Positions 17,842 through 54,872 of a stretch of DNA of 64,000 nt are shown here, piece after piece. Position 1 is the first letter of the stretch. Each line of letters begins with the position of its first letter. The position numbers and the translations under genes are program-made. The notes beneath the pieces are model-generated. The model was not told where the DNA came from and made no database searches. It saw only the letters and a list, made by a program, of their open reading frames with translations. Source of the stretch: Promethearchaeota archaeon (GTDB lineage Archaea > Asgardarchaeota > Lokiarchaeia > Sigyniarchaeales > SOKP01); NCBI GenBank assembly GCA_048939995.1, contig JBHLOY010000004.1, positions 160,001 through 224,000 on the forward strand, read 5' to 3'.

Positions 17842-17909
17842 CCTAAATTCCTACATTTTGTTGTATTGTTATAATAATTTAAATATAATTGTTATTAAAT
17901 TTAATAAAA

Positions 17910-18689: not shown

Positions 18690-18699
18690 TATTGCTATT

Positions 18700-22456: not shown

Positions 22457-22492
22457 ATAATTATAAAAATAAAAAAATTAGAAGTATAAACC

Positions 22493-23701: not shown

Positions 23702-23764
23702 AATTAATCCTATTATTTATTTTTATTTTAAGTTCAAAATAATATAAAAATTAAGGCACGAGTA

Positions 23765-24997: not shown

Positions 24998-25020
24998 AGC
25001 CTAATAAGAGAGAATAAAAA

Positions 25021-25491: not shown

Positions 25492-25517
25492 ACTAATTTT
25501 TTTTAAAATTTTGACTC

Positions 25518-25799
25518 TCATCCGCCAACTAGTGGAGGAGAGATAACTATTTGATCTCCATCTTTTAGTTTGGTATCTAAATCTTCTAAAAATAAATAAT
25601 TTCTCCCATTTACTAAAATAACTACATGAGACTCTAAATTTCCATACTTATCTACAAAATTTTTCCTTATTTTTTTTCTATGTTCACCCATGAATTGTTC
25701 AATTACTTCTTTTAGAGTTTCAACATTTGAATAATTGATCTCAGTTAAACCAACATCTGCAGAAAATATTGTCATCAACTTAAGTATGACATTTGCCAT
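25518..25799 (-). CDS. MoaD/ThiS/SAMP ubiquitin-like sulfur carrier
   Basis: ILVNGR...DGD..PPLVGG C-terminal diglycine. Confidence 0.9.
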   Translation of the reverse strand: MANVILKLMTIFSADVGLTEINYSNVETLKEVIEQFMGEHRKKIRKNFVDKYGNLESHVVILVNGRNYLFLEDLDTKLKDGDQIVISPPLVGG

Positions 25800-25930
25800 T
25801 AAATCTTAAATATTTTAATGACATTAAAAATTTTATTCAATAGAATTATAAAGAATAATCACAAGGTTAAAAATATCTCTTAGATATTTTCAAATAAGCT
25901 ATTAAAACCTTCTCAGTCTAAATTACGTAA

Positions 25931-27466: not shown

Positions 27467-27469
27467 GAA

Positions 27470-27625
27470 TTATTTTGCCAGCCCTCGAACTTTAGGTTGT
27501 CCTGGCCAAGGCCATGAAATTCTATATGTGATATTACAATGAGGACAAGTAGCTTCTTTTGCATTTTCTTGAACTGAAAAACGCTTCAGACAATTCATGC
27601 ATCGACATTTAGCATCTTCACTCAT
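27470..27625 (-). CDS. 51-aa zinc-ribbon protein absent from the ORF track
   Basis: hand translation MSEDAKCRCMNCLKRFSVQENAKEATCPHCNITYRISWPWPGQPKVRGLAK*; stop abuts the convergent gene's stop. Confidence 0.75.
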   Translation of the reverse strand: MSEDAKCRCMNCLKRFSVQENAKEATCPHCNITYRISWPWPGQPKVRGLAK

Positions 27626-27898
27626 ATATAGATCGCTTATTGTTCTATAATCCTTGGTTAGTTTTATGTTATATGTTTCTTATTATATTTAATATTTTAA
27701 ATTATTTTTCTACCTATTTGTTTTTGTTGAATTATTTAAATCTAATGGATGATTTAAATAAAAGGTAAAATATATTAATTTTATAAGTGGATACTATAAT
27801 TAAATTTATTTCAGAGTTTAGTTCTGTACTTTCTGCGGGCATATTTTCCCATCGCACTAAAAACGTGATACATTTCGCTTTAATAAAATTAGGCATTA

Positions 27899-27905
27899 GA
27901 GGTGG
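27899..27905 (+). promoter_or_regulatory. RBS GAGGTGG for aor
   Basis: 6 nt upstream of the in-frame ATA at 27912. Confidence 0.55.
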
Positions 27906-27911
27906 AAAACT

Positions 27912-29801: not shown

Positions 29802-29816
29802 TAAAGAGGGATTAAC

Positions 29817-30305
29817 ATGGCAAAGATTTTGTTTGTTGATACAGAAAAATGCACAGGATGCCGATTGTGTGAGAATGTGTGTTCAATTTCCCATGAAAAA
29901 GTAAGTAATCCAAATAGAGCAAGAATCCATATCGTAAAATGGGAAAATGCTGGATTATACATCCCAATGGTCTGTCAGCAATGTGAAACACCTATTTGTG
30001 AAACAGTTTGTCCTATGAGTGCAATAAGCAGAGATCAAAAAACAGGAGCTATGCTTATCAATGAAGACTTATGCGTAGGGTGTAAAATGTGTGTTATGTT
30101 TTGTCCATTGGGGGGCGTTGGAATAGATAAAAGTAGAAAAATATTGAAATGTGACCTTTGTGAAGGAGATCCAATCTGTGTAAAGTTTTGTATTCCTGGA
30201 GCACTTCAATATTTAGATGCAAACGCACTTAATTTACAAAAAAGAAGAGTAGCAGCAGAAAAATTATCAGAATTAATGAAGAAATTATTAGATATATCAA
30301 TTTAA
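29817..30305 (+). CDS. 4x[4Fe-4S] electron-transfer subunit (DmsB/HydN-like) of the AOR
   Basis: four Cys clusters (CTGCRLC..C, CQQC..C..CP, CVGCKMC..CP, CDLC..C..C). Confidence 0.9.
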   Translation: MAKILFVDTEKCTGCRLCENVCSISHEKVSNPNRARIHIVKWENAGLYIPMVCQQCETPICETVCPMSAISRDQKTGAMLINEDLCVGCKMCVMFCPLGGVGIDKSRKILKCDLCEGDPICVKFCIPGALQYLDANALNLQKRRVAAEKLSELMKKLLDISI

Positions 30306-30329
30306 AATTAATTTTAAAGAAGATTAATT

Positions 30330-31280
30330 ATGGAGAAAACTTTTAAATTTGGAATTATTGGTATAGGTCCAACAGGAGGAATTTTAGCAGCACATCTTGC
30401 CAAAGCAGGCCATAATGTGGTATTAGTTGATGTCTATAAGAGCCATATGGATATGATTAAAAAAAAGGGATTGACCATAACTAATCTAAAAGAATTTAAT
30501 GCAAAATACTCCGAAGAAAATATTTGTTATTCAATAGACGAACTTCATAATAAAGAAGTAGATACTTTATTTATTGCTGTAAAAGCATCTCGTTTAAATG
30601 AGATCTTACCTCAAATTAAAAGTATTGTAAAACCAACCACTACTTTAATTAGTCTGCAGAATGGATTTGACACAGAAGAACTTATAGCAAAATACGGAGG
30701 TGTAGAAAACACAATTCGAGTAGTTGTTAATTATGCTGGAAACTTAATAGAAGAAGGTGTTATTAGGATGTCTTTCTTCAACCCTCCAAATTATATCGGC
30801 GTTTTATCCACTCAAGCTGAAAATAAGGCTAAAAAACTAGCTGAAATCATCACTTCAGCTGGATTAGATACCAAATTTACTCCAGATATAAAAAAGTACG
30901 AATGGAAGAAATGCATATTGAATTGTATTAGTCCTGTATGTGTCACGACTCGTACAACCATGAAACAAACCATGGGATTTAGTGACACGAGAGATCTTTG
31001 TAGAGAAATATTACGCGAATGTATTGAGGTTGCTAAAGCACGAGGTATTAATTACGAACCAGACTTTTTAGATAAAGCCATGGAATATTTGGATAAAGCA
31101 GGACATCACAGAGTCTCGATGGAGGCAGATATAGATGCTGGAAACCCTTCTGAAATTGATTTTCTTAATGGGAAAATAGTTGAGTATGGAAAGCTTGAAG
31201 GTATTTCTACACCATATAATAAGATCTTTGTCTCTCTAATTAAAGGATGTGAGCTCCCTCCGATCAATCATGAAAGATGA
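30330..31280 (+). CDS. PanE/ApbA-family 2-oxoacid (ketopantoate-like) reductase
   Basis: GIGPTGG, AVKA, LQNG, WKKCILN, SMEAD..SEIDFLNG. Confidence 0.85.
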   Translation: MEKTFKFGIIGIGPTGGILAAHLAKAGHNVVLVDVYKSHMDMIKKKGLTITNLKEFNAKYSEENICYSIDELHNKEVDTLFIAVKASRLNEILPQIKSIVKPTTTLISLQNGFDTEELIAKYGGVENTIRVVVNYAGNLIEEGVIRMSFFNPPNYIGVLSTQAENKAKKLAEIITSAGLDTKFTPDIKKYEWKKCILNCISPVCVTTRTTMKQTMGFSDTRDLCREILRECIEVAKARGINYEPDFLDKAMEYLDKAGHHRVSMEADIDAGNPSEIDFLNGKIVEYGKLEGISTPYNKIFVSLIKGCELPPINHER

Positions 31281-32064
31281 ATATTATTTTGTTGGTATAG
31301 ATGCAGGAACTTCATATACTAAAGCAGTGCTGATAAATATCAAAATGGAGTTGCTAAGCTTTTTTGTTAGACGAACTGGTATTTCTATTGAAGCTTCAAG
31401 TAGTGCTGCGTTTAAAGCGATTCTTTCTAGTGCATCATTATCAAAAATTGATATAAACCATATTACTGCTACAGGATATGGGAAAAGTAAGGTTGATTTT
31501 GCCAATACTTACAAGACTGAAATTAGCTGTCATGCAAAAGGTGCATATCATTATTTTCCCAAGGAGATAACAATTATCGATATAGGAGGACAAGATACTA
31601 AAGTAATCAAACTTGATAATAAAGGCAAGATAATTAGATTTAAAATGAACAGAAAATGTGCTGCAGGAACAGGTGCATTTATCGAGGAGATTGCCCATCA
31701 ACTCGATATTCCACTCACAGAATTAAATAATCTAGCAGCAAAATCTGCTTCAAATGCTCCTCTTGCAAGTTATTGTACAGTTTTTGCTAAAACAGAGATT
31801 CTTTCTCGCATAAAACAAGGGGAGAAAGTTGAAGACTTGCTAAAAAGTGTATTTGGCTCTGTAATTAAAAGAATCATTGAGATGGCCGAACTAGAAGGTA
31901 CGATTGTACTTACTGGTGGAGTAATTGCTCATAATAAAATTATTGGTGAAATATTAAAAAATGAGATTAAATTAAATATTTTAATTCCTCCAAACCCTCA
32001 GTTTATAGGAGCTTTAGGAGCTGCACTGTTTTCTAGACAATATTTTAATTTAAATTTAGAATAA
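31270..32064 (+). CDS. HgdC/FldI/HadI-type ATP-dependent dehydratase activator
   Basis: GIDAGTS, TGYG, EISCHAKG, DIGGQD, MNRKCAAGTG, CTVFA; ATG overlapping the panE-like stop preferred over 31249. Confidence 0.9.
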   Translation: MKDEYYFVGIDAGTSYTKAVLINIKMELLSFFVRRTGISIEASSSAAFKAILSSASLSKIDINHITATGYGKSKVDFANTYKTEISCHAKGAYHYFPKEITIIDIGGQDTKVIKLDNKGKIIRFKMNRKCAAGTGAFIEEIAHQLDIPLTELNNLAAKSASNAPLASYCTVFAKTEILSRIKQGEKVEDLLKSVFGSVIKRIIEMAELEGTIVLTGGVIAHNKIIGEILKNEIKLNILIPPNPQFIGALGAALFSRQYFNLNLE

Positions 32065-33470: not shown

Positions 33471-34667
33471 TTATTCTTCAATTCCTGTTTTTTTAATTTC
33501 ATCTATAAGGATAGGTATAAATTTGTGTAAATCAGCTACAATTCCATAATGAGCAACATTGAAGATGGGAGCATTGGGATCCTTATTGATGGCAACTATT
33601 ATTTCAGAATTTTGCATTCCGACTAAATGTTGAATTGCTCCAGAAACTCCACAGGCTATATACAATTTTGGGGAGACGGTTTTACCTGTTTGTCCAATTT
33701 GTCTATCTTGCTCTAACCAGTTTAATTCAATGGTTACTCTGGATCCACCTAATTCGGCACCTAATTCTCTAGCTAAATCCTCAATTAATTTGAACCCTTC
33801 TTTTGATCCAACTCCTCTTCCACCTGCTACTATAATGTCAGCATCCTCTAAATTCACTTGTTTTCTCTCCATATTAATTATTTTTACAATTTTAGAAACA
33901 GAATCCTTTTCTTTATATTCCTTTTCAATAATTTTAACATTTACTTGTTTTGGATGATCTTTGTTAATTTTGAAAATACCTGGTCTCACTGTTGCCATTT
34001 GAGGTCTACTCGTTGGAGTTCTAATGGTAGCCATTATGTTTCCACCAAAAGTAGGTCGAGTTTGCATTAAGTTTCTAGTCTTTTTTTCAATATCTAGACC
34101 AGTACAATCTGCTGTTAATCCTGCATTTAATCTTTTCGCAACTCTTGGTGCAAAATCTCTTCCTGTTGGAGTGGCACCAATTAATACAATTTCTGGTTTA
34201 TATTCTTTAATTAATTCTGTTATAATATTAACATATAAATCTGAATAATAATCTTTTAGTATAGGTGACTTTACATAAATTACATCATCTGCCCCAAATT
34301 CACCAAATTTTTTTAATTCATTATCTAGCTTATCCCCCAATAAGATTAAAGTTAGTTTTACATCTAATATTCCTGCTAGTTCTTGCCCTTTACCTAAAAG
34401 TTGATAAGCTACTTTATTAATTTCTTGCTTAAAATGTTCGGCAATAACCCAAATCCCCCTATACTGACTTTTATCTACTTTATCAATATACTTTTCATGT
34501 TCTAAAGTAATAGCTTCGACTGAACAAGCATCCACACAAACTCCACATAAATTACAATCTTTTGTAATTACTGCTTTATTATTAATAACTTCAATCCCAC
34601 CATATGGGCATGAATTTACACAAGATTGGCACCCAGTGCATAATTCAGTATCAATTTTTATGCTCAT
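33471..34667 (-). CDS. etfA: ETF alpha subunit with N-terminal 2x[4Fe-4S] ferredoxin domain (CarE-like)
   Basis: CTGCQSC..CP, CNLCGVC..C; GLTADCT, RPTFGG, QIGQTG, GVSGAIQH. Confidence 0.93.
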   Translation of the reverse strand: MSIKIDTELCTGCQSCVNSCPYGGIEVINNKAVITKDCNLCGVCVDACSVEAITLEHEKYIDKVDKSQYRGIWVIAEHFKQEINKVAYQLLGKGQELAGILDVKLTLILLGDKLDNELKKFGEFGADDVIYVKSPILKDYYSDLYVNIITELIKEYKPEIVLIGATPTGRDFAPRVAKRLNAGLTADCTGLDIEKKTRNLMQTRPTFGGNIMATIRTPTSRPQMATVRPGIFKINKDHPKQVNVKIIEKEYKEKDSVSKIVKIINMERKQVNLEDADIIVAGGRGVGSKEGFKLIEDLARELGAELGGSRVTIELNWLEQDRQIGQTGKTVSPKLYIACGVSGAIQHLVGMQNSEIIVAINKDPNAPIFNVAHYGIVADLHKFIPILIDEIKKTGIEE

Positions 34668-34679
34668 TATATCTTCCTC

Positions 34680-35483
34680 TTATATCACTTTATCGTTCTT
34701 TAGATGCTTTATCAAATTTCTTGATATCTCCTCATGAGTGCCCCAAAGTTTTATATGTTCTCCTTTTCTTTCAGGGATGAATATCTTCCAGACTTCTGTC
34801 ATTGAACCATCTAGTCCAACCTCATTTTTATTAGCTTTTAAATCTTTAGCATTCCAAAAAATTATTTGCTTTTTTTGGTAGGCATCCACAATTCCCTTTA
34901 AACCCGGATTTCGTGGCGTATTGATATCCTTTAGTACTGATATCAAAGCGGGCAATTTTGTTTCAATTACTACCACTTCTTCTGGTCTAAAAGCTCTCTC
35001 TACAACTAATTTCTCTCCTTCTAATTGAAAATTTAATACGTATGTAATTTGAGGAATCTCCAGTTCTTCTGCTAATTCAGGACCAACTTGAGCAGTGTCT
35101 CCGTCAATTGCTTGAGTTCCACAAATTACTAAATATTTTTCGTCTCTTAATTCGAGTAATATTTTTTTAATTGCTAATGCTAAAGTATGAGAAGTTGCTA
35201 AAGTGTCGGCGCCAGCAAAAGTTCTATCAGTTAATAGATATGCTTTATCAGCACCCATAGATAAAGCTTCCCGTAAAGCCTGTTCTGCTTGTGGAGGTCC
35301 CATACTTATAGCTATTATTTCACTCCCATACTTTTCTCTTATTGTGAGGGCCAATTCAATGGCATGCTTATCATGTGGATTAACAATTGAAGGAATTCCA
35401 GAACGAACTAAGGTATTAGTTTTAGGATCTATTTTTACTTCTGAAACTCCGGGAACTTGCTTAATACAGACGAAGATTTTCAA
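34680..35483 (-). CDS. etfB: ETF beta subunit
   Basis: CIKQVP, NPHD, GADTLAT, QAIDGDTAQVG; TTG start. Confidence 0.93.
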   Translation of the reverse strand: MKIFVCIKQVPGVSEVKIDPKTNTLVRSGIPSIVNPHDKHAIELALTIREKYGSEIIAISMGPPQAEQALREALSMGADKAYLLTDRTFAGADTLATSHTLALAIKKILLELRDEKYLVICGTQAIDGDTAQVGPELAEELEIPQITYVLNFQLEGEKLVVERAFRPEEVVVIETKLPALISVLKDINTPRNPGLKGIVDAYQKKQIIFWNAKDLKANKNEVGLDGSMTEVWKIFIPERKGEHIKLWGTHEEISRNLIKHLKNDKVI

Positions 35484-35636
35484 AAATTATCACATAAAGA
35501 GCCTTTCTTACTAATATTAAATATTTAACCACATATAAACCGTATTTTTTCATTTAGATTCATTTTCTTACAAATATTTCAATAATTCTCTGTAACTGAC
35601 CATTATTTCGAATATAAAAAAATTATAAAAAAAGGA

Positions 35637-36803
35637 TCAAAATTTTGTTCTTAACATATGATTTGCGATCACCATTCTCTGGATTTCACTTGTTCCCTCA
35701 TAAATCTCACCCATTTTCGCGTCCCTAAACATCCTTTCAACTGGATAAGCTTTCATTAGCCCATATCCTCCATGAATTTGAACTGCTTGATGAGCTGCCA
35801 TCATACCTGCTTCAGACGCGACCAATTTAGCCATTGATGCTGTTAATCCATAATCCATCCCCTGATCGCACATCCATGCTGCTTTATAAGTCAATAGCCG
35901 AGAAGATTCTACAGCCGTACTTATATCAGCAATTTTCCATTGAATTCCTTGAAAATTAGCAATCTTTTGACCAAATTGTTCCCGTTCATTTGCATATTTA
36001 ACTGCGGCTTCTAAACAACCTTGAGCTAAACCAAGGCATTGAGCAGCAATAGTTATTCTTCCATAATCAAGTATCTGGAGTCCTAATTTAAATCCAGACC
36101 CTACTTGTCCTAAAATGTTTTCTTGAGGAACTCTAACATTATCAAATACCAATTCAGAGGTATTTGAAGCTCTCACTCCTAACTTATCCTCCTTAACTCC
36201 CACAGAATAACCTGGTGTATCAGTATCTACAATAAATATTGTTAATTCTTTTCTAGCTCCTTTTTCTCCGGTTTTAGCTACTACTAACAATGTCTCTGCA
36301 ATCCCTCCATTAGTAGCAAAAATCTTACTTCCATTAAGTATATATTCATCTTTGTCTTTTTCAGCAGTTAATTGTACTCCCCCCGCATCAGATCCAGCGT
36401 TTGCTTCAGTTAAACAAAAGGCACCAATCTTGTTCCCCTTTGCAAGATCAATAAGAAAATTTTGTCGTTGTTCTTCAGTTCCAAATATATAAACTGGGTA
36501 GGTACATACGCTACAATGAACTCCAGTTGTAATAGACCATGATGCGTCTACTCTACCTATTTCCTCAGTGATGATAGCAAAAGCTATCGTATCATTGTGT
36601 AGACCAGCACCACCATATTCTTCAGGGATACACGATCCAAAATAGTTCATTTCTTTCATTTTTTCCATAACATTAGGGTCCAATTCAGATTTTTGATCAG
36701 ATTCTTGAGCTACAGGAACAATATACTGTTCACAGAATTCTCTGGTCTTTTCTCTAATCATTTTCTGCTTCTCAGTTAACGAAAAATCCATATAAATCAT
36801 CAA
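35637..36803 (-). CDS. acyl-CoA dehydrogenase (Bcd/CarC-like)
   Basis: FCLTEANAGSD, LNGSKIF.TN, KLGVRAS, QIHGGYG, IYEGTSEIQR. Confidence 0.93.
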   Translation of the reverse strand: MMIYMDFSLTEKQKMIREKTREFCEQYIVPVAQESDQKSELDPNVMEKMKEMNYFGSCIPEEYGGAGLHNDTIAFAIITEEIGRVDASWSITTGVHCSVCTYPVYIFGTEEQRQNFLIDLAKGNKIGAFCLTEANAGSDAGGVQLTAEKDKDEYILNGSKIFATNGGIAETLLVVAKTGEKGARKELTIFIVDTDTPGYSVGVKEDKLGVRASNTSELVFDNVRVPQENILGQVGSGFKLGLQILDYGRITIAAQCLGLAQGCLEAAVKYANEREQFGQKIANFQGIQWKIADISTAVESSRLLTYKAAWMCDQGMDYGLTASMAKLVASEAGMMAAHQAVQIHGGYGLMKAYPVERMFRDAKMGEIYEGTSEIQRMVIANHMLRTKF

Positions 36804-36844: not shown

Positions 36845-36862
36845 ATTTTAAACGATTAAATA
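36845..36862. promoter_or_regulatory. near-palindromic operator candidate TATTTAA-ACGA-TTAAATA (copy 1)
   Basis: 17 bp identical to 42086-42102; upstream of acd-etfBA and the divergent MBL gene. Confidence 0.5.
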
Positions 36863-39856: not shown

Positions 39857-41596
39857 TTAAATAAACAATTGCATCAATGATCCAATCCCTAGCATATTTG
39901 AAATTGCAGAACCAAAAAAGATTTGAATAATTATAAAAGAACTAATCATTACAGAACTAAATTTTCCAGTTTTTTCATAAACCAGTGAATTTATTATAAT
40001 TACAGCTAAAAAGATAAAATATGTTACAAGCAGAGCCTCTATGATAAATATTTGGAACGACAAGGCCATTAAGATTAAAACATTAACTATGGCAAGAAAA
40101 CTAGTAAATATTGTCTTTTTAAAGGGCGTTCTGATAAAATATAGTCTAGGAAAAATTATTTTTCTATAAAAAAGTTCTATTGCTAAATAAAAGGGATAGA
40201 TAGAATAAGCTAATATTAAAGAAATAATATTTACTGGTGAGAAAAATGCGAATGGATAACTTAAAGAATATGAAATATAAAAAATGAGAAAAATAAAAGC
40301 TGAAATAAAAGAAAATGATAAAACATTCTTATGGAATTGTGATTTTATTTCATCTTTAAGGCGGTTCTCTATATATTCACTTATACCTTGACCAATTCTT
40401 TCTGCTGTTAAAATATATTTTAAAAAAATTACACAAAAATGAATTAATATTATAATTATGGGTGCAATGATTATACCAATGATTCCTAATATTGAATAGA
40501 ATATTATCCAAATACTAATAAATCCAATAAAATAGAGAATAATTGTAAGGACCTCTTTGAGAATTAACTTCTTATTTGGTTTTATATCATTTCTAGCAGG
40601 TATCTTTTTTTGGGAGTCTTCTTCAAAATTAAATGAAAAGAACTTTGAGCTATACCTTATTAATCTTAATGATGTGATAAATGAACCAACTATACCTAAT
40701 AAAAGTAAAGTTAGAGAATATTTGTAGGATAATAGAATGGGGCCATTAATCATAGTAGATCCAAAAAATTTCGATTCTAACCAACTAATTGTACTTAAAA
40801 GAACTTTGTCAGAAAATAAATAATGGGCTCCTCCAAATAAATGTTCAGTAATATTTATTAAAGTACAATTAGTTAATTTTTGAGCTAATAAAGCATTTTC
40901 TTTATAGGATACGGTTGTATCATAAATAGATTGGATTACTAAAAGATTGGATGGGTTTGAACTATTAATTATATTTGCAGGATTATATTTCAAAAAATCC
41001 TCATTTAGCTCAATTCCTGATATTTCAGCACTAAAGTTTACTACACCAGCCCACGTAATCGTAACTTTAAAGCGAGCATCTAATGCGCTGTTCATTAAGG
41101 CGACTGCTCCACCTAATGAATGCCCAACTATTGCTATTTGGGAAGAGTTAATTCTATTATAAAAAGACAGCCTTTCTATAACATCTAATAATTTAGAACA
41201 ATCTTGGGCAATTGCTGGTACTCTGGTTCTATTTCGATAGGGTTCCGTATTAATATCTAAAAGGTGGCCCGTACTTTCTCCACCACCACGATAATCTATA
41301 GAGGCTACATAAAAACCTCTTTTAGTTAATTCATTTGGTATTCTAATGTCTAAATCTTTTTGACTCCCTAGCCCATGGGCATATATCACTAATGGAGCTT
41401 CACTTTGAAAATCTATATGGTTAGTAGGATGATATAGATTCGCATAAATTTTAGCCCCTGAAGATTCAAACTCAATTCTCTCATAATAGATATAGGATTC
41501 AAATCTATTGGAATAAAGTAAAATCAATATTACTATATAAAATAATAGGGAAGCAACAAGTACTTTATGCTTTTTAAGATTTCTAAATAAATTCAT
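39857..41596 (-). CDS. alpha/beta hydrolase with N-terminal anchor and multi-TM C-terminal domain
   Basis: AHG, DYRGGGES, GHSLGG, D and H; hydrophobic C-terminal half. Confidence 0.85.
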   Translation of the reverse strand: MNLFRNLKKHKVLVASLLFYIVILILLYSNRFESYIYYERIEFESSGAKIYANLYHPTNHIDFQSEAPLVIYAHGLGSQKDLDIRIPNELTKRGFYVASIDYRGGGESTGHLLDINTEPYRNRTRVPAIAQDCSKLLDVIERLSFYNRINSSQIAIVGHSLGGAVALMNSALDARFKVTITWAGVVNFSAEISGIELNEDFLKYNPANIINSSNPSNLLVIQSIYDTTVSYKENALLAQKLTNCTLINITEHLFGGAHYLFSDKVLLSTISWLESKFFGSTMINGPILLSYKYSLTLLLLGIVGSFITSLRLIRYSSKFFSFNFEEDSQKKIPARNDIKPNKKLILKEVLTIILYFIGFISIWIIFYSILGIIGIIIAPIIIILIHFCVIFLKYILTAERIGQGISEYIENRLKDEIKSQFHKNVLSFSFISAFIFLIFYISYSLSYPFAFFSPVNIISLILAYSIYPFYLAIELFYRKIIFPRLYFIRTPFKKTIFTSFLAIVNVLILMALSFQIFIIEALLVTYFIFLAVIIINSLVYEKTGKFSSVMISSFIIIQIFFGSAISNMLGIGSLMQLFI

Positions 41597-41700
41597 AATG
41601 CTTCCTTTTCTAACGATTAATAAAATTTCTTTATAACAAAAATTCTAAATCTAGATTTAGAAATCCAATCAGATTATGGTATGGAAATATTTTATTGAAT

Positions 41701-41883
41701 TTAAGATCTTTTCCCTCTCTTTTTACAACAATCAGAACATAAAAATTCTGTAAATGCTATGAAGCCACAATCCTCCATATAACAATCCCACATCTTTGTC
41801 TCTTCGTTAAACGAAATACTATATCCACAATCTAAGGGTAATGATTCCACTGTTCTACCACAATTACTGCATTTTAAAGTCAT
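41701..41883 (-). CDS. 60-aa Cys-rich small protein
   Basis: CSNC..C..C..C..CSDCC; GGTGA RBS upstream (tcacc at 41891-41895). Confidence 0.7.
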   Translation of the reverse strand: MTLKCSNCGRTVESLPLDCGYSISFNEETKMWDCYMEDCGFIAFTEFLCSDCCKKRGKRS

Positions 41884-42085
41884 TTATTTATCACCTTTAA
41901 TATTCTATGCTATAAAGACGAATTTAAATCTTCTTATAATATTTTAAGTAAAAACTTTCAGAAAATAGCTAAAATGAAAAGTTAAAAACCATCTTTCTTT
42001 ATAGGATATAATTTCTCTACCTCTAATTGGTTAAATTGAGTTAAAAACATTAGTTCAGTTTCAGAAAAGTCAATAATTTAAACTA

Positions 42086-42102
42086 ATTTAAACGATTAAA
42101 TA
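42086..42102. promoter_or_regulatory. operator candidate ATTTAAACGATTAAATA (copy 2)
   Basis: identical to 36846-36862; ~70 bp upstream of the mutase; an extra half-site ATTTAAAC lies just upstream. Confidence 0.5.
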
Positions 42103-42169
42103 TTTTAGTAAATAACAATAAATTAACTTATTATATCAATTAAATGAAATAAAATTATGTGATTATCTC

Positions 42170-43843
42170 TTGTTTGACAAAAATTATCTGTATAGATTAG
42201 AATTAAAAAAGCAAGAATGGGAAGAAAAGTATAAAAAATTAAAGGAAAGAGATGTAAAGTTCGTTACTGATTCAGAAATCCCGATTAAACCTCTTTACAC
42301 TCCATTGGATGTAAAAGGTGATTATTTTGAAAAGGTAGGACTTCCCGGTGAACCTCCATATACAAGGGGAGTTTATCCTTCCATGTATAGAGGGCAATTA
42401 TGGACAATGAGATTATTTTCTGGTCATGGAACACCCGAAGAAACTAATAAAAGATGGAAATATTTATATGAAAACGGAGAAACAGGTTTTAGCGCGGCTG
42501 TTGATGCATTAACATTTAATGGGATCGATCCAACTAACCCAGATGGAGCACCTGAAGTAGGAACCTCTGGCGTTCCATTGTATTGTATTGACAGTCTTTT
42601 TGCTCTTACTGAAGATATTCCAATAGACAAAGTTAGCGTTGCTTTAGTTGTTGAACCATTTACTTGTGCACCAGTTTGTTCAATGTACTTTAATATGGCA
42701 AAAATGCGAGGATATGATATCAAAACCTTAATGGGAACTACTCAAAATGATATTTTAACTATGACTGTAGGATATATTCCTTATAAAAATTGCCCCCCAA
42801 ATCATTTGCTTCGAGTTGCTTGCGATTTTATTGAATGGACTATTGCACAAAAGAATGTACCAAAATGGCATCCAATTAATTTTACGGGATATAATTATCG
42901 AGAAGGCGGAATTGATGCTATTCAAGAGCTTGGTTTCGTATTTGGAAGTGCCTGTTCTCATATTGATAATTTAGTAGAAAGGGGTTGGAAAGCTGATGAT
43001 TTTGTAGGAAGATTGGCTTTTCATTTGGCTGCTCATAAGGATTTTTTTGAAGAGATCGCGAAATTCCGTGCAGCAAGACGAATTTGGTATAAATTGATGA
43101 AGGATAAATATGATGTTAAGGACAAGAAGAACCTCGCATTTAGATTTCATGTACAAACTGCAGGAAGTTCGTTAACTGCTCAGCTTCCTATGATTAATAT
43201 AGTCCGTACAGCGATTCAAGGATTAGAAGCTAATTTAGGTGGGTGTCAATCTTTGCATACCAATTCTTACGATGAAGCTATTTGTTTACCATCTGAAGAG
43301 GCAGCTCTTGTTGCTTTAAGAACTCAACAAGTAGTTGCTGATGAGACAAGAGTCACTAATACCATAGATCCCTTGGCTGGAAGCTATTATGTAGAATGGT
43401 TAACTGATGAGGTGGAAGAAAGAGTATGGAAATACCTCGATAAAATTCAGGGAGTTGGATCTATAGATAAAGCATTATCTACAGGGTGGTTATATAAAGA
43501 GATGAGAGATGCTTTTCATAAGAGACGGATGCGTATTGAAAAGGGAGAAGAAATTATGCTTGGAGTTAATAAATATCCTGTATCATACGATACTGTGACT
43601 GATGTGTTTAGAACTAATAAAGAAGCAATTGATATTGAAGTAAATCGTATTAATAAATTGAAAGCACGTAGAGACAACGCAAAATTAGAAAAGATTATGG
43701 ATAAATTACGTAATGCATGTGAAAAAGAAGAAAATGTGATGCCTTTAGTAATGGAAGCAACTAGAGAAGGTGCAACAGTTGGAGAAGTTTGTGATATTTA
43801 TCGAGAAATTTGGGGTATCTGGGAGCCCCCATTAGCTATTTAA
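42170..43843 (+). CDS. B12-dependent acyl-CoA mutase large subunit (MCM/ICM family, atypical active site)
   Basis: PGEPPYTRG.Y..MY, WTMR, QND, FEEIAKFRAAR, QSLHTNSYDE, DPLAGSY. Confidence 0.92.
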   Translation: MFDKNYLYRLELKKQEWEEKYKKLKERDVKFVTDSEIPIKPLYTPLDVKGDYFEKVGLPGEPPYTRGVYPSMYRGQLWTMRLFSGHGTPEETNKRWKYLYENGETGFSAAVDALTFNGIDPTNPDGAPEVGTSGVPLYCIDSLFALTEDIPIDKVSVALVVEPFTCAPVCSMYFNMAKMRGYDIKTLMGTTQNDILTMTVGYIPYKNCPPNHLLRVACDFIEWTIAQKNVPKWHPINFTGYNYREGGIDAIQELGFVFGSACSHIDNLVERGWKADDFVGRLAFHLAAHKDFFEEIAKFRAARRIWYKLMKDKYDVKDKKNLAFRFHVQTAGSSLTAQLPMINIVRTAIQGLEANLGGCQSLHTNSYDEAICLPSEEAALVALRTQQVVADETRVTNTIDPLAGSYYVEWLTDEVEERVWKYLDKIQGVGSIDKALSTGWLYKEMRDAFHKRRMRIEKGEEIMLGVNKYPVSYDTVTDVFRTNKEAIDIEVNRINKLKARRDNAKLEKIMDKLRNACEKEENVMPLVMEATREGATVGEVCDIYREIWGIWEPPLAI

Positions 43844-43857
43844 TTGAGGTGCTTAAG

Positions 43858-44256
43858 TTGAGCGATAAAAAGATACGAATTCTAATGTCTAAACCAGGAA
43901 TAGATGGCCACTGGCGCGGAGGAATCGTAGTATCACGTGCTTTAAGGGATGCTGGAATGGAATTAATATTTGGAGGGTTCCAGAATGTAGAGCAAATTGT
44001 AGAAGCTGCTATCCAGGAAGATGTAGACGTAATAGGTCTGAGTATCCACTCTGGGGCGCATTTTGCGTATACTCAAAACGTAATTGATCTTTTAAAAGAA
44101 CGAGGTGTGTTCGATCATATAATGATCCTTGTTGGTGGGGTAATACCAGCTAAAGATTTCAATAAGTTAAAGGAAATGGGTGTTGCGAACGTGTATGGTC
44201 CTGGATCAATGACTTCAGATATAGTAGATTTTATAAGAACACATGTCAAAAAATAA
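43858..44256 (+). CDS. acyl-CoA mutase cobalamin-binding small subunit
   Basis: KPGIDGHWRG (DxHxxG), LRDAG.E, GLS, GGVIP; TTG start behind a GAGGTG RBS. Confidence 0.9.
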   Translation: MSDKKIRILMSKPGIDGHWRGGIVVSRALRDAGMELIFGGFQNVEQIVEAAIQEDVDVIGLSIHSGAHFAYTQNVIDLLKERGVFDHIMILVGGVIPAKDFNKLKEMGVANVYGPGSMTSDIVDFIRTHVKK

Positions 44257-44307
44257 AAAAAACATGTAATATTTTTTTAATTTGTCTAATTTAAATAGCC
44301 TTTCATT

Positions 44308-45300
44308 TTGCGGGGAAATATAAGTTTGAAAGATATGCATGATATCGATAATCTGGTAGAAAAATTTAAGAAGAAAGATAAAATAGCATTAGCAAGGTTA
44401 ATTTCTGTCATTGAAAATGAACCTGAAGAGGTTTATGAGATTTTTAAACGTTTTGAAGGTATTAAACATGATTCTTATATTATAGGAATAACAGGTTCTC
44501 CAGGTGTAGGCAAAAGTACTCTAACTGGGGCATTAACCCAAAGATTTTTAGAAGAGGGTAAATCTGTTGGAATAATTTGTGTAGACCCGACATCTCCTTT
44601 CAGTGGAGGTGCTTTTTTAGGCGATCGTGTGCGAATGTCTAACATCTCTTTACATCCAAATGTATTTTTACGTAGTCTTGCTTCAAGAGGCTATAAAGGC
44701 GGAATTTCAAGAGCAGTTTTTGATATTAGCCTTTTATATGAGGCATGGGGGATGGATATAATAATTATAGAGACGGTGGGCGTTGGACAAGCAGAGTTTG
44801 ATGTATATGATCTAGCATATACTATTGTTGTTGTTCTTGTGCCTGGATATGGCGATGCAATTCAAATGCAGAAAGCAGGGATTATTGAAATAGGTGATAT
44901 TTATGATATTAACAAAAAAGATTTGGGTGGAGAAGATATAGCAGTTCAAATCGAAATGATGCTTGATGATACGATTTTTCAAAGTGGTTGGAGGCCACCA
45001 GTAATTATGACAGATGCGATTAATAGTGAGGGAATTGAAGAACTTCTCCAAAATATTAAGGATCATAAAAATCATGTTGAATTGTCAGGACTTATAAATG
45101 AGAAGAGAAAAACCCGTTTTAGGTATAAAATTAAGGAATTAATCTATTCTAAGGTGGAAGAATTAGTCTCTAAAAGTCTCATTGATGAAAATGAGATTAA
45201 TAACATAATAAACAATGCGTTAGATGATGGGAAATTTAAAATTTATCGTTCTATCCATGATAAATTTGAAAATATTAACTTTGAAATAAAAAAGAAATAA
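44308..45300 (+). CDS. meaB: MeaB/ArgK GTPase chaperone
   Basis: GITGSPGVGKST, VDPTSPFSGGAFLGDR, ETVGVGQ, NKKD. Confidence 0.93.
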   Translation: MRGNISLKDMHDIDNLVEKFKKKDKIALARLISVIENEPEEVYEIFKRFEGIKHDSYIIGITGSPGVGKSTLTGALTQRFLEEGKSVGIICVDPTSPFSGGAFLGDRVRMSNISLHPNVFLRSLASRGYKGGISRAVFDISLLYEAWGMDIIIIETVGVGQAEFDVYDLAYTIVVVLVPGYGDAIQMQKAGIIEIGDIYDINKKDLGGEDIAVQIEMMLDDTIFQSGWRPPVIMTDAINSEGIEELLQNIKDHKNHVELSGLINEKRKTRFRYKIKELIYSKVEELVSKSLIDENEINNIINNALDDGKFKIYRSIHDKFENINFEIKKK

Positions 45301-45302
45301 AA

Positions 45303-46082
45303 TTAATTTGATAAGAAATTCATAACTATTTCATTGAATTCCTCTGGTTTCTCAATAGCAACAGCATGTCCAGCATCTTTAATTTCTATAAACTTTGCGT
45401 TTGGAAGTAGTGCAGTGTATTCTTCTTTAATGGAAGAAGGAGCATAATCTTGATCAGATCCAATAATCAATGTTGGACATTTAATCTTGTCTAAGTGATC
45501 TCGAATACTCCAGCCAATTAATGCACGCATTGCTGAAAGATATGCTTTCTTATCATTTTCTTGCCATCTTTCGATTAATTTCTGACGCAAATCTTCTTGC
45601 TCAGGTTTTATAAACAATCTTGGGGCAAGAACTTGTCCCATTTTTTTCATTCCGACTAATCTTACGATAGAAATGCGCTTAAATGCTTCTAATTTCATCT
45701 TAAATGAGTCTGCTGGTATTTCAATACCCGCATTAACAATTATAAGGCTTTTCACTAATTCGGGATAATCTACAGCAAATTGAAATGCAATTCCTCCTCC
45801 TAAGGATATTCCTAGAATATGTGTTGAAGTAACCCCTATTATTTCAAGTAATTCTGCAATATCTTTGGCAAACATCTGCATATTATAAGGTCCCTTCGGT
45901 TTGTCTGTTTTTCCATGGCCTCTAAGATCTATGGTGATAACCTGATATTTCTGAGAAAAAGTTGGTACTTGAAATTCCCAATCACGAGTGCTTGAACCTA
46001 ATCCATGAATCAATAGTAAGGGTTCACCCTCTCCAGTCGACTCATAGTACATTTTAATATCACTAACCTTCTGTTTTGGCAT
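45303..46082 (-). CDS. alpha/beta hydrolase (enol-lactonase-like)
   Basis: HGLGSS, DLRGHG, GISLGG, AGH; start at ATG of MPKQ. Confidence 0.88.
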   Translation of the reverse strand: MPKQKVSDIKMYYESTGEGEPLLLIHGLGSSTRDWEFQVPTFSQKYQVITIDLRGHGKTDKPKGPYNMQMFAKDIAELLEIIGVTSTHILGISLGGGIAFQFAVDYPELVKSLIIVNAGIEIPADSFKMKLEAFKRISIVRLVGMKKMGQVLAPRLFIKPEQEDLRQKLIERWQENDKKAYLSAMRALIGWSIRDHLDKIKCPTLIIGSDQDYAPSSIKEEYTALLPNAKFIEIKDAGHAVAIEKPEEFNEIVMNFLSN

Positions 46083-46425
46083 AAAAAGACCTGTTAATAT
46101 TTTTGTGATTAATATTAATTCAATCTTATGACATTTAAAAGGTTTGTAAAGGCTAGATAAGTGCACCTAATCAATTAAATGAGAAAGAAAAAACTCATTG
46201 AAATAATAGAATTAGGTAAATAAATTCCAATAAATTGTAATTTAAAAAATATTTTGTAATTTGCCTTTTCCTCTCTCTTGTTTTGGGCAGCTTAAATTTC
46301 ATTAATGGATCCTTCCATTTTTTTTAGGGTAATAAATTATACTTTGTATTACAAGTGCACCAATAAGTTTTATAAGCATGATATTAACTTTCTTGTTAAG
46401 TCCATAAATTATGGAGTGAAAAAAA

Positions 46426-47001
46426 ATGAGTTATAGAAGTGACAAAATTAAAAATAAGATAATATCAATCACAACTAGCCTCTCTTCAATTTTTATTCCA
46501 ATTTTTCAGTATGTACCCGCAACCGCAGTATGGTTTGGTATAATGAGTGTTCCAATTGTTGCTTACATTTTCTACTTCTTTCAAAATCCAAGCATTCTAA
46601 TTTACGATTTACTGTTTCTATTTAGGACACCAGGGATATACATCACTTTGTTTGGTTTTACAATTTATTTATATTCTTTTATTTTTCAATTGACTCATAG
46701 AAAACAATTAATTAATAAAGGACCTTATAAAATTATTAGACACCCTCAATATGTTGCATTTATAATTATGACTTTTGGGATGACGTTAGTTGTATTTCAA
46801 ACTACCCCAATATCGTATTTTCCTATATTAGACACCTATTCAGTTATTTTAATTATTTGGCTTATAGAAGTTCTGGCTTATATAATATTGGCTAAAATTG
46901 AAGATTTTGCTTTGAAGTATAAGTTTGGTGATGAGTTTATTGAGTATAAAAATTCTGTGGGTTTTATGTTACCGCGTATTGCTCTAAAAAAGAAGCATTA
47001 G
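46426..47001 (+). CDS. ICMT/PEMT-family membrane methyltransferase
   Basis: LINKGPYKIIRHPQY, ED..L..KFG.EF.EY. Confidence 0.8.
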   Translation: MSYRSDKIKNKIISITTSLSSIFIPIFQYVPATAVWFGIMSVPIVAYIFYFFQNPSILIYDLLFLFRTPGIYITLFGFTIYLYSFIFQLTHRKQLINKGPYKIIRHPQYVAFIIMTFGMTLVVFQTTPISYFPILDTYSVILIIWLIEVLAYIILAKIEDFALKYKFGDEFIEYKNSVGFMLPRIALKKKH

Positions 47002-47877: not shown

Positions 47878-48756
47878 TTATTTTAATAATTTAGGAAACT
47901 TATTTTCCATTTTTAATTCTTCTTGAATAATTTCATTCAATAAATCTTCTCGTTCTTTTCCAGCAAGCACTTCTAATTTTCTAATGCTTAATGGATCAAC
48001 TCTTTCCCTTAAAATTTTGATTTCATTTACAGTAGGAGGTGTCGTCTTTTTTAGATTATCGTTAATTAATAATTCAAATCCTGTTGATTCTTTTACACTT
48101 TCAATGCTTACACCCGGATGAATAGATATGACTCTCATACTTTTACTTACTTTATCAAAGTCTAAATAAGCTAAATTTGTTATTACGCATTGAGGACCGG
48201 AACCTCCACATATAGATGATTTACCATCTTGAAATCCTACTCCTGAAATAAAAAATAGCTTCTCAGTTGGAACAAAGGTTCTTGTATCATGTCGAGGAGT
48301 ATATAAAAATGAACCGCGAGAATAAAACATACTAAAATCTGCTATTCCAGCACAACCAGGAAGTCTAACTTTGGGTTTTTCCCAATTTCCTATACAGATG
48401 TTATTAGTATTTCCATATTGATCGATTTGTGCTGGTCTAAAAAATTCTATAGTTGTTAATTTATCAGAAGGTAATGATTCAAGTGTGCATTCTACTGAAT
48501 TTTGGAATCGATAAGCTCTAGCTGTATTCATTTCTAAATAGAGAAGAGACACTTGACGAGGCTCTAAAACAAATGTATTACCCATAATATAATGATAAAT
48601 AGCATCAGTTGCATGGGTTAGTTTCGCTAAAGTAAAAGCAGCCCAGACCATAGGAGTGGCAACACCAACAATCATAACATCATCATTTCTTACCTCCCTT
48701 GCCATTAAGATTGTCATTATTTCATCTACACTATAATCTTTTGAATATTCAGTCAT
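47878..48756 (-). CDS. family I CoA-transferase beta subunit (GctB/CatJ-like)
   Basis: AQIDQYGNTN, RLPG..G, VITNL, SIHPGV; true start MTEYS at 48756. Confidence 0.85.
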   Translation of the reverse strand: MTEYSKDYSVDEIMTILMAREVRNDDVMIVGVATPMVWAAFTLAKLTHATDAIYHYIMGNTFVLEPRQVSLLYLEMNTARAYRFQNSVECTLESLPSDKLTTIEFFRPAQIDQYGNTNNICIGNWEKPKVRLPGCAGIADFSMFYSRGSFLYTPRHDTRTFVPTEKLFFISGVGFQDGKSSICGGSGPQCVITNLAYLDFDKVSKSMRVISIHPGVSIESVKESTGFELLINDNLKKTTPPTVNEIKILRERVDPLSIRKLEVLAGKEREDLLNEIIQEELKMENKFPKLLK

Positions 48757-48772
48757 TTTTTCCCTCTTTAAT

Positions 48773-49573
48773 CTAACTTTTAATCCAATCATTAATTGCA
48801 ATTTTAACAGAGCGGCGCATTTCCTTTGAGTAATCTGCAGCCAATTTTGCAAAATAAAATTTTTGTCCTATATTTTTAGCATATTTTATATAATAGCCTC
48901 GTTCCACTCCTTCAAACATTTCGTTAAAATCTTGTTTATTTAATCTTTTATATTGGTTAATGAAATGAATAAATTTTTGAGGAAATCGAGGTTGTAATGG
49001 AATATGCTCCTTATCACCTTTAGGGTAACCAAAACAGACCATAGTGATAGGAAATACCCATTTAGACAAGTTAAGAAGCTCACGATGGATTTCAATATTT
49101 TCTATAATATCACCAATATAACATGAACCGATCCCTAAAGCTTCAGCTGTTATTACCGCATTTTGGGCTGCAATTAAGGCATCGCAACAAGCAAGAAGTA
49201 AATCAGATTCTTGAGGTGTCTCAAAATTCAAACCCATCTCAGCGCATAATTCTTCTACCTCGCAAACATTAAAATAATCCCACCATCTTTGCATATCAGC
49301 TAGAAATACTAAGACTAAAGGTGCCTTAGCTATGTGAGGTTGATTATCGCATGTTTTCGCTAATTTATTTTTTATGTCTTGGTCAGTCACTTGAATAATA
49401 GAATAAAACATCATATTTCCTGCTGTTGGTGCTCTCATTGCTCCATGGATAATTAAATCTATTTCTTCTTGGCTAAGATTTTTTGAATTGTATGCGCGAA
49501 TTGTTCTTCTCTTCTCTATTAAATCTATCGTTTGATAATCTTTTTTATTTATTTTCATATTAACACACATCAA
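48773..49573 (-). CDS. NfsA/FRP-like flavin nitroreductase
   Basis: RRTIRAY, APTAGN, DNQP, AQN..AEALGIGSCYIG, GYP. Confidence 0.88.
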   Translation of the reverse strand: MMCVNMKINKKDYQTIDLIEKRRTIRAYNSKNLSQEEIDLIIHGAMRAPTAGNMMFYSIIQVTDQDIKNKLAKTCDNQPHIAKAPLVLVFLADMQRWWDYFNVCEVEELCAEMGLNFETPQESDLLLACCDALIAAQNAVITAEALGIGSCYIGDIIENIEIHRELLNLSKWVFPITMVCFGYPKGDKEHIPLQPRFPQKFIHFINQYKRLNKQDFNEMFEGVERGYYIKYAKNIGQKFYFAKLAADYSKEMRRSVKIAINDWIKS

Positions 49574-49581
49574 TACTAATT

Positions 49582-50442
49582 TTATAACAATATATTAAGA
49601 ATAGTTTGTATTCCTCCTGCTTCCTCGAGATATTGCGTATGATTCTTACCAAAAATGAACTTATTTTTATATTCTTCAAATGTCAATTTAAGATATTCTT
49701 GAATATGGAGAGGATCAAATGTATATATGGGATAACAACTTGTAGGATGCGCTCCAAATGGAGACCTGACTACTGCACTAGTAGTTTGCATCGGAAGTTG
49801 AGCTTTTCCAGGTGAATACCTAATATCTTCAGTTTCAACAAGTTTTTCACATATAATTATTGTTTTTTTGGCTGTTTTTGCCATATCATCGTCCATCCAA
49901 ACTGCTCCAGCAATATTTCCATTTCCGCACTCATCAGCATAAGGTACATGCAAAATAGCAACATCCAAATCAATTTTAGGGACTGCCATAACTTGAACTC
50001 CTGAACCAAGTGGATCTTCAATTTGTTTAATATCTTTTCGAACTTTAGAAAAATCAGTACCGATAATCCCTTTCAAAGGCATAAAAGGTACTTTTAGATA
50101 AGACGCTCTTAATCCTAAAGCAATCGTCGCCTCACTTTCTTCAGATATCTTAACAGAACCAGATTCTACCGCGTTCTTATAGTTAGGAGCCATACCAAAT
50201 ATTTCAACTGAAACGAAACATGATTTTACCTCAGAAACACATTCAGCTCCAATTAACATATCCACTTCAATTCCACCCACAAAAGTGCATATTGTTAATT
50301 TCTTTTTATTTTGTTTAATAATCTCCCTACAGGCACTAATTGGTTTTCTCCAAAATGACAATCCTCCAAATCCAACAAGATCACCATCTTGAATGAATGT
50401 TGAGACGGCATCACTTAAGGACATTAATTTACTTTTTCTCAT
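49582..50442 (-). CDS. family I CoA-transferase alpha subunit (GctA/CatI-like)
   Basis: SKLMSLSDAV..I.DGD..GG, PFMP, DVAILH..AD..GN, PFGAHPT. Confidence 0.88.
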   Translation of the reverse strand: MRKSKLMSLSDAVSTFIQDGDLVGFGGLSFWRKPISACREIIKQNKKKLTICTFVGGIEVDMLIGAECVSEVKSCFVSVEIFGMAPNYKNAVESGSVKISEESEATIALGLRASYLKVPFMPLKGIIGTDFSKVRKDIKQIEDPLGSGVQVMAVPKIDLDVAILHVPYADECGNGNIAGAVWMDDDMAKTAKKTIIICEKLVETEDIRYSPGKAQLPMQTTSAVVRSPFGAHPTSCYPIYTFDPLHIQEYLKLTFEEYKNKFIFGKNHTQYLEEAGGIQTILNILL

Positions 50443-54335: not shown

Positions 54336-54872
54336 ATAACTCGAAAAAGGCTGACTATTGGCTTAGTGCAATGTTACTTTGGAAGAGGTAAAGGAAAGAC
54401 TACAGCCGCATTAGGTCAAGGATTTCGTGCTACTGGACAAGGTTTCAAAGTTTACATGATTCAATTTATGAAGGGTTGGGACAAATATGGAGAGGTGAAT
54501 GCAATTAAAAATACAGATAATTTTGAACTTAAACAATTTGGTACACCCGATCTTATTTCTGAACCAAGAGAAATCGACTATGAGGAGGCTAAAAAAGCAT
54601 TGAAATTTGCTGAAGAAATTATTACGAGTGATAAATATGATATAGTAATTTTAGATGAGATCGGGGTTGCTATCGAATATAATTTGATTGCGGTTGAAGA
54701 AGTCTTGGAATTAATAAATAAAAAACCCGAAAAAGTTGAATTAATATTGACTGGTGGTCCTAATATACATCCCAAGATAAAAGAAAGAGCTGACTTATTA
54801 ACTGAAATGAGGATGATTAAACATTATTACTCTTCAAAAGGGATCACTGCAAGGTTAGGTATTGAATATTAA
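54336..54872 (+). CDS. cobO: cob(I)alamin adenosyltransferase CobO/BtuR (start possibly ATA 54336)
   Basis: GLVQCYFGRGKGKTTAALG, IQFMKG, ILDE, ELILTG, ADLLTEM..KH, GIEY. Confidence 0.9.
   Translation: MTRKRLTIGLVQCYFGRGKGKTTAALGQGFRATGQGFKVYMIQFMKGWDKYGEVNAIKNTDNFELKQFGTPDLISEPREIDYEEAKKALKFAEEIITSDKYDIVILDEIGVAIEYNLIAVEEVLELINKKPEKVELILTGGPNIHPKIKERADLLTEMRMIKHYYSSKGITARLGIEY

Follow-up and report, generated by a model that had tools for sequence, protein, structure and literature searches.

A divergent B12-dependent acyl-CoA mutase of Asgard archaea with an altered substrate pocket

Which acyl-CoA is rearranged by a B12-dependent mutase whose active site matches none of the known signatures? 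The question is raised by three co-directional open reading frames (ORFs) at 42170-45300 of a 64,000-nucleotide stretch (the window; G+C ~32%) of contig JBHLOY010000004.1 from a Promethearchaeota archaeon (GCA_048939995.1). They encode the large subunit of an acyl-CoA mutase, a B12-binding small subunit and a MeaB-type G-protein chaperone, and their nearest proteins are found in metagenome-assembled genomes of Promethearchaeota/Loki-, Hod-, Hermod- and Thorarchaeota. To our knowledge, the characterised specificities of acyl-CoA mutases number only about six; the isobutyryl-CoA (ICM), ethylmalonyl-CoA (ECM), 2-hydroxyisobutyryl-CoA (HCM) and pivalyl-CoA (PCM) mutases each opened a pathway or a biotechnological route. 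The pocket of the window enzyme rules out methylmalonyl-CoA mutase (MCM) and matches neither ICM, HCM nor PCM. Judged from its residues and relatives, the locus probably encodes a working adenosylcobalamin (AdoCbl)-dependent mutase of a separate, Asgard-restricted clade, which would catalyse a 1,2-shift on an uncharged short acyl-CoA distinct from known substrates.

Gene integrity and the active-site pocket

A preliminary description of this DNA, made from the letters alone, had proposed a B12-dependent mutase accompanied by a small subunit and MeaB, and profile matches to PF01642, PF02310 and PF03308 bear this out. The large subunit matches PF01642 over residues 33-549 (E 5e-163) and TIGR00641 with 544 bits (cut-off 304); the full-length profile match and the TIM-barrel fold place it in the acyl-CoA mutase superfamily. 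Its AlphaFold2 model (127 sequences) has a mean predicted local distance difference test score (pLDDT) of 94.1 and a predicted template-modelling score (pTM) of 0.94, and Foldseek superimposes it on HcmA (4r3u) with a template-modelling (TM) score of 0.95 and a root-mean-square deviation of 1.7 A, and on MCM (1req) with a TM score of 0.93. From the DNA, TTG 43858 is the likeliest start of the small subunit, after GAGGTG and 15 nt past the large-subunit stop; its open frame runs from 43810, but this is not the start, and GTG 43849 is an alternative. Orthologous small subunits, of 131-134 aa, begin at the point equivalent to TTG 43858. The MeaB start is probably at 44326 or 44335, inside the ORF opening at 44308, and the protein is intact, as the description had held, scoring above its TIGR00750 cut-off. 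An Rfam scan of 41000-46500 gave no match.

Residue numbering follows Propionibacterium shermanii MCM and is based on phmmer alignments to PDB chains, including mutant entries. As a calibration, the position at which 5req_A ("Y89F mutant") departs from 1req_A is precisely the one aligned to Phe83 of the window protein; by a count along 1req_A, Tyr202 corresponds to Arg207 and Asn242 to His244. The central motifs of the large subunit are WTMRLFSGH (aa 78-86), SAAVDALT (108-115), QNDILTMTVGY (192-202) and INFTGYN (236-242). All the motifs quoted previously, among them AVDA and the small-subunit DGHWRG, are present in the translations, and the changes read from them at Tyr89, Arg207 and His244 hold against 1req_A and 5req_A. 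In alignments to 1req, 5req and human MMUT, the two residues that hold the carboxylate in MCM are replaced, Tyr89 by Phe83 and Arg207 by Tyr202. His244, which activates the thioester, is replaced by Asn242, Gln88 by Leu82, Phe117 by Val111, Leu119 by Ala113, Ile240 by Phe238 and Lys202-Glu203 by Thr197-Met198, and one residue is inserted past the conserved Tyr205. No substitute carboxylate-binding residue was found among the clade-invariant positions. Because Tyr89 and Arg207 are gone, His244 has become Asn and Phe117 and Leu119 have shrunk, the enzyme cannot be an MCM.

The large subunit keeps Gln197, Tyr243, H-x-Q-T and H-T-N-x-x-D-E, together with the N-terminal CoA-binding motifs PYTRG, SMYRG and WT.R. 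In the small subunit K-P-G-I-D-G-H-W-R-G and GG provide the His-on cobalamin-binding signature (Lys-x3-Asp-x-His-x2-Gly, GG). Among the five Catalytic Site Atlas residues for 1REQ, Tyr89, His244, Lys604, Asp608 and His610 (PMC3205055), the first two are replaced and the last three are kept in the small-subunit K-P-G-I-D-G-H. The S-x-L motif of the small subunit is replaced by S-I-H. All orthologous small subunits have this S-I-H (LSIHSGAH), and those of the paralogues keep S-x-L. Cobamide choice by MCM is tuned by residues of the lower-ligand pocket (PMC6759758), and the S-I-H change may likewise indicate a preference for another lower ligand.

The differences from characterised mutases extend beyond the carboxylate site. 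Against the Tyr89, Arg207 and His244 of MCM (1REQ, human MMUT, ScpA) the window mutase has Phe83, Tyr202 and Asn242, although the two share the fold, CoA motifs, Gln197, Tyr243, HxQT/HTNxxDE, the His-on domain and MeaB. For ICM we take the signature residues to be Phe89 and Gln207, and for HCM Ile90, Asp117 and Gln208. Like ICM (IcmAB, or the fused IcmF, 4XC6), the window enzyme has Phe at 89, an uncharged pocket and a plausible link to butyryl-CoA, but Gln207 is replaced by Tyr or Phe and His244 by Asn, and it lacks the Lys-Glu pair, Phe117 and Leu119 that ICM keeps. HcmAB (Aquincola tertiaricarbonis, 4R3U; M. petroleiphilum PM1; Xaut_5021) likewise has split subunits and a MeaB-type chaperone. 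HcmA is the best sequence match, at only 36% identity (E 3e-128, 432 bits vs 336 for MCM), and the best fold match; it too is without the Tyr89/Arg207 pair and has Asn in I-N-x-x-G-Y. Its Ile90, Asp117, Gln208, His245 and Lys-Glu, however, are Phe83, Ala110, Tyr202, Asn242 and Thr-Met in the window protein. The motifs WTMRQIAGF/STDFDM/KEYMAQ (4r3u, Mpe, Xaut_5021) are WTMRLFSGH/SAAVDA/TMTVGY there, GHDRG of HcmB is GHWRG, and no 2-hydroxyisobutyrate (2-HIBA)-CoA ligase gene neighbours the window mutase. Xaut_5043/5044 of Xanthobacter autotrophicus Py2, which we take to be the PCM, an assignment reportedly made by Kitanishi et al. in 2015, are comparably diverged from TIGR00641 and also have split subunits with MeaB and an uncharged pocket, but carry Leu89, Gln243, His244 and GHDRG and belong to a different clade. 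ECM needs a carboxylate-binding Arg, and such an Arg is absent. No NCBIfam equivalog cut-off is reached (MCM NF006944, 434/876; IcmF NF045497, 227/1500). The earlier statement that the combination fits no MCM, ICM, HCM or PCM signature is sustained by this pocket comparison. With gene integrity, fold and pocket residues established, the phrase "unusual active site" stands as far as characterised mutases are concerned and has to be qualified for uncharacterised relatives, among which Asn244 is common (see below).

An Asgard clade within a wider Asn244 class

Three PF01642 genes are present in the genome: an MCM-type (WTMRQYAGF, KEYVARGTY, GYH), an ICM-type (WTMRQFAGF, KEYIAQKSW, GYH) with its own DGHDRG small subunit and MeaB, and the mutase at 42170-43843. 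TIGR00641 scores are 763 and 786 bits for the two paralogues, 686 for HcmA, 544 for the window mutase and 477 for the X. autotrophicus PCM candidate. The nearby CobO of the preliminary description is real; it lies 9 kb downstream of the mutase locus, is the sole PF02572 match in the genome and presumably makes AdoCbl for all three mutases.

FastTree trees were built from 150 representatives, references, the two paralogues and 79 homologues from named genomes. The references were E. coli ScpA, HcmA of M. petroleiphilum and X. autotrophicus, Xaut_5043 and MCMs with epimerase/carboxyltransferase context; ECM, the (R)-3-hydroxybutyryl-CoA mutase RCM and IcmA were not among them, and deep nodes are weak. 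The Asgard sequences form a monophyletic clade (support 1.0) on a long branch, which groups (support 0.99) with uncharacterised sequences of Ca. Methanolliviera, Desulfobacteraceae and Chloroflexota, apart from the MCM/ICM-type, HCM and PCM references. The alignment and phylogeny proposed as a check on the preliminary description accordingly put the clade outside ScpA, both HcmA and Xaut_5043, and its separation is established. Fragments aside, a whole-library HMMER search found no relative above 50% identity beyond the clade. A contig scan starting from the nearest outgroup (P0124) yielded canonical paralogues for the most part; the exception was Ca. Methanolliviera, with a match at 57%. Full-text literature searches brought up no publication dealing with a mutase that is Asgard-specific or of the Asn244 type.

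Of 400 Asgard species genomes searched, about 110 contain orthologues, at 66-100% identity. These genomes include most members of the host's own family, along with some from a few further Asgard families; the best matches after the orthologues, at 44-47% identity, are canonical MCM- or ICM-type paralogues. Residues were compared across 36 orthologous loci spanning the same identity range, and those of the pocket vary little or not at all, in line with the earlier opinion that the gene is not decaying. This conservation and the complete fold rule out a pseudogene. Only Tyr202 departs from this, being Phe in two lineages; its hydroxyl is therefore dispensable and the site hydrophobic. One related genome has two clade copies (G209, contigs C58 and C6; 90% and 87% identity to the query). 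In another locus (L056, G161:C83) the small subunit reads G-G-H-F-R-G, with Asp changed to Gly and Trp to Phe, and the large-subunit signature is unchanged.

Asn at position 244 occurs in 65 of 259 tree leaves and requires at least 18 changes on the tree. The residue covaries with the small subunit across all fetched loci (L039-L159, L060-L121 included), in counts that are inflated by relatedness. His244 in the large subunit is paired with H-D-R-G in the small subunit in 40/40 loci; Asn244 is paired with H-W in 42 loci and with F, Y, N or S following the His in five, and never with Asp (47/47). The covariation is seen in at least four deep lineages, namely Asgard, Desulfobacterota/Syntrophales, Chloroflexota and Methanolliviera, and all Asn244 types also lack Lys202-Glu203. 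The pairs from Desulfobacterota, Syntrophales, Chloroflexota and Ca. Methanolliviera (L060-L072, L079, L086, L121) resemble the Asgard enzyme in Asn244, Phe238, an aromatic residue past the cobalt-binding His, and the loss of Lys202-Glu203 and Arg207, and have neighbours in common with it: a GctAB-like pair without the catalytic Glu, an acyl-CoA dehydrogenase (ACAD) and a short-chain dehydrogenase/reductase (SDR). They differ in being only 40-46% identical, with Leu or Phe at 89 and other residues at 116-119 and 202-207. In Ca. Methanolliviera sp. GoM_asphalt (L060, CABGHH010000011.1), two Asn244-type mutase pairs are tandem or divergent, and three small-subunit genes with the motifs H-N, H-F and H-S adjoin two HGD-D subunits and a BcrAD/BadFG activator.

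Despite the inflated counts, the pairing of Asn244 with an aromatic residue marks, as far as sequences can define it, a coherent and undescribed class in anaerobes. Changes that go together on the two faces of the corrin, Asn244 without Lys202-Glu203 in the large subunit and Asp to Trp in the small, would mark a mechanistically distinct branch. Since His244, kept in all characterised members known to us, is lost here, a change of mechanism is possible. It is a tenable proposition, short of a probable one, that the Asgard gene belongs to a broad Asn244/His-Trp class of strict anaerobes which either rearranges a substrate pair new to mutases or departs from His244-assisted thioester migration in the group that migrates or in the mode of activation.

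Genomic neighbourhood

The large subunit-small subunit-MeaB core is conserved: the small subunit is found in 35 of the 36 loci and MeaB, within 10 kb, in 30. Behind MeaB, nine loci have a ferredoxin-fused nitroreductase-family gene and four, those of the more distant orthologues, have CobO as the very next gene; the two are most simply read as cofactor-handling accessories. Features of the window are listed in Table 1.

Table 1. Features of the mutase locus and its surroundings, in window coordinates
Feature	Position	Strand	Details
Acyl-CoA mutase large (substrate-binding) subunit	42170..43843	+	557 aa, TTG start; PF01642, TIGR00641
Pocket residues of large subunit	Leu82, Phe83, Val111, Ala113, Thr197, Met198, Tyr202, Phe238, Asn242
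B12-binding small subunit	43858..44256	+	~132 aa; PF02310 E 1.5e-19, TIGR00640 137 bits
MeaB-type G-protein chaperone	44308..45300	+	PF03308 E 9e-77; TIGR00750 294 bits, cut-off 241
CobA/CobO/BtuR ATP:corrinoid adenosyltransferase	54366..54872	+	PF02572 E 2.7e-56, at G000:C13:214360-214869
16-nt AT-rich near-palindrome	42087..42102	.	TTTAAACGATTAAATA; ~70 nt upstream of mutase start
Bcd-type short-chain acyl-CoA dehydrogenase	35637-36803	-	Pfam; best PDB matches Bcd 5ol2_C, 4l1f_A
EtfB	34680-35483	-	Pfam
Ferredoxin-fused EtfA	33471-34667	-	Pfam
GctAB/AibAB-like CoA-transferase-fold pair	47878-48852 and 49582-50442	-	PF01144; PDB 1poi, 5mzw, 6co6
Nitroreductase-family gene between CoA-transferase-fold genes	48773-49573	-

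Two neighbouring gene sets are possible pathway partners. One is the acd-etfBA operon (33471..36803): in 13/36 loci an orthologous ACAD is found upstream of the mutase, at a distance of 1.5-9 kb, and in 11/36 EtfBA, and in L045 and L054 an ACAD is directly divergent from the mutase. An identical copy of the near-palindrome lies at 36847-36862, between this operon and a metallo-beta-lactamase gene. The 16-mer has these two exact copies in the window and four matches at up to two mismatches against 0.66 expected; its core recurs ~80 nt upstream of the mutase in three genomes of the same genus and is not conserved further out. The element is at best a weak candidate for a shared operator of both operons. 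The other possible partner is the Glu-less GctAB-like pair (47878..50442), which is IpdAB-like as well and whose beta subunit has Tyr instead of Glu at the GctB catalytic position in the phmmer alignment. GctAB-like pairs occur in nine of the 36 Asgard loci and lie directly beside Asn244-type mutases of Syntrophales (L079) and Desulfocapsaceae (L121); the Desulfocapsaceae operon also includes an SDR, a thiolase and a binding protein of the tripartite ATP-independent periplasmic (TRAP) type. In L040, a 69%-identical Asgard orthologue, two SDR genes come straight after the small subunit, and SDRs are near in L055 and L056. Genes of the 2-hydroxyacyl-CoA dehydratase family, with an activator, adjoin mutases of the sister clade.

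The window also contains a benzoyl-CoA-reductase-type cluster, hydratases, a thiolase, a CoA ligase and an aldehyde:ferredoxin oxidoreductase (AOR). On the minus strand, 12038-19668 includes two HGD-D-family subunit genes at 14230-16686, two ORFs at 12038-13715 for putative ATPase subunits and, within 16795-19668, a zinc-dependent alcohol dehydrogenase gene, one confirmed crotonase gene and a further ORF at 17910-18689. These genes could form a benzoyl-CoA reductase and a Had/Dch/Oah-like set. On the plus strand, 20885-32064 encodes a CoA ligase, a thiolase, a lone HGD-D subunit, a CCG Fe-S protein, a tungsten-type AOR, a PanE-family reductase and an activator ATPase. A 60-aa Cys-rich ORF (41701-41883, minus strand; CxxC ... 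CxxCC, zinc-ribbon-like) sits in the 573-nt gap between an alpha/beta-hydrolase gene and the mutase. The setting of the mutase is anaerobic acyl-CoA catabolism, and the neighbours do not converge on one substrate.

Candidate reactions and their meaning

In the reading that we favour, the TIM-barrel large subunit, the His-on B12 small subunit and the MeaB loader would act as one functional system. Its radical machinery is retained in the CoA motifs, Gln197, Tyr243, HxQT, HTNxxDE and the Lys, Asp and His of the B12 domain. Most likely it would perform the usual 1,2-shift of the CoA thioester on an uncharged, largely hydrophobic short acyl-CoA, probably not one used by either of the cell's other mutases, the MCM-type and the ICM-type paralogue. 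The straight-chain product would be handed on to the neighbouring Bcd-type dehydrogenase and EtfAB, or be supplied by them. The activity, the uncharged character of the substrate and the Acd-Etf link are all deduced from residues and gene order. Several observations weigh against this reading. The Acd-Etf link is confined to one archaeal family and may be shared synteny, and the Acd-Etf genes could equally serve the adjacent benzoyl-CoA-type cluster. The more distant orthologues adjoin SDRs rather than Acd-Etf, a better fit to a hydroxyacyl substrate. Two single-contig genomes (~4.4 and 6.0 Mb) of a sister family (f3) have the canonical paralogues only. Moreover, every characterised acyl-CoA mutase that we know of keeps His244, and loss of His244 slows MCM; an Asn-type enzyme may be slow or have a different chemistry.

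Phe89 and a hydrophobic residue at 207 could give the specificity of a second isobutyryl-CoA/butyryl-CoA mutase, through which isobutyryl-CoA from valine would enter butyryl-CoA oxidation by the neighbouring Bcd-EtfAB. The Tyr89-to-Phe exchange is the ICM hallmark, isomerisation of butyrate and isobutyrate by such mutases is known in anaerobes (PMC10832561), and the Acd-Etf genes upstream in 13 loci have the 16-mer in common with the mutase. We nevertheless consider this unlikely: the genome already contains an ICM-type paralogue of canonical Phe/Gln/His signature, complete with a small subunit and a MeaB of its own, position 207 is Tyr or Phe and not Gln, His244, Lys202-Glu203, Phe117 and Leu119 are changed too with their new states conserved, and the IcmF equivalog model scores far below its cut-off. 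A hydroxyacyl-CoA mutase following the logic of HCM and RCM, interconverting 2-hydroxy-2-methylacyl-CoA and 3-hydroxyacyl-CoA before SDR oxidation and thiolase cleavage, would bind the hydroxyl through Asn242, perhaps with Tyr202, in place of Asp117 of HcmA. This is quite unlikely given that Ile90 and Asp117, which define HCM, have become Phe and Ala in the window mutase, and that Tyr202 is Phe in exactly the SDR-linked lineages. The position of HcmA as closest solved relative, in bits and in TM score, its common Asn in I-N-x-x-G-Y, the SDR genes at L040, L055 and L056, the Desulfocapsaceae operon and the dehydratase-family genes beside sister-clade mutases all speak for it; the SDR link, however, is found in few loci, and an adjacent 2-hydroxyisobutyrate-CoA ligase, as in hcm/rcm clusters (PMC7176365), is missing.

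A carboxylated CoA ester (methylsuccinyl/glutaryl-, ethylmalonyl-, or alkyl/aryl-succinyl-CoA) could in principle be held without Arg207, and its product then decarboxylated by the Glu-less GctAB/AibAB-like pair. Such pairs recur beside Asn244-type mutases in three phyla, a benzoyl-CoA-type cluster lies in the window, and the sequence of mutase and decarboxylase is established in the alkylsuccinate and indoleacetate pathways (PMC8163825, PMC8360864). The pocket makes this very improbable: no conserved Arg, Lys or His takes the place of Arg207, Lys202 is lost too, the candidate His86 varies among His, Tyr and Phe in orthologues, and a related Desulfobacterota type even has Glu in this segment. 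That the protein is catalytically dead, or a B12-binding relic or regulator without mutase activity, is hardly credible. Two of the five MCM catalytic residues, Tyr89 and His244, are indeed replaced; characterised ICM, HCM and PCM, however, are likewise without Tyr89, and the strong purifying conservation in about 110 species genomes, the complete fold (pLDDT 94), the cobalt ligand triad and the dedicated MeaB, CobO and nitroreductase accessories all point to a working enzyme.

A distinct specificity of the window mutase is well supported. That the substrate itself would be new, as the preliminary description thought likely, is a reading of the pocket residues. The clade is found in about a quarter of the sampled Asgard species genomes, beside acyl-CoA fermentation genes, and because it is conserved there at 66-100% identity, its reaction would be a step that reconstructions of Asgard carbon metabolism lack. 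What is new here beyond the preliminary description is the rule for the class: the pairing of Asn244 with His-Trp across phyla is a testable sequence rule that would define a large uncharacterised class of mutases, and this class offers a natural test of how essential His244 is to the rearrangement.

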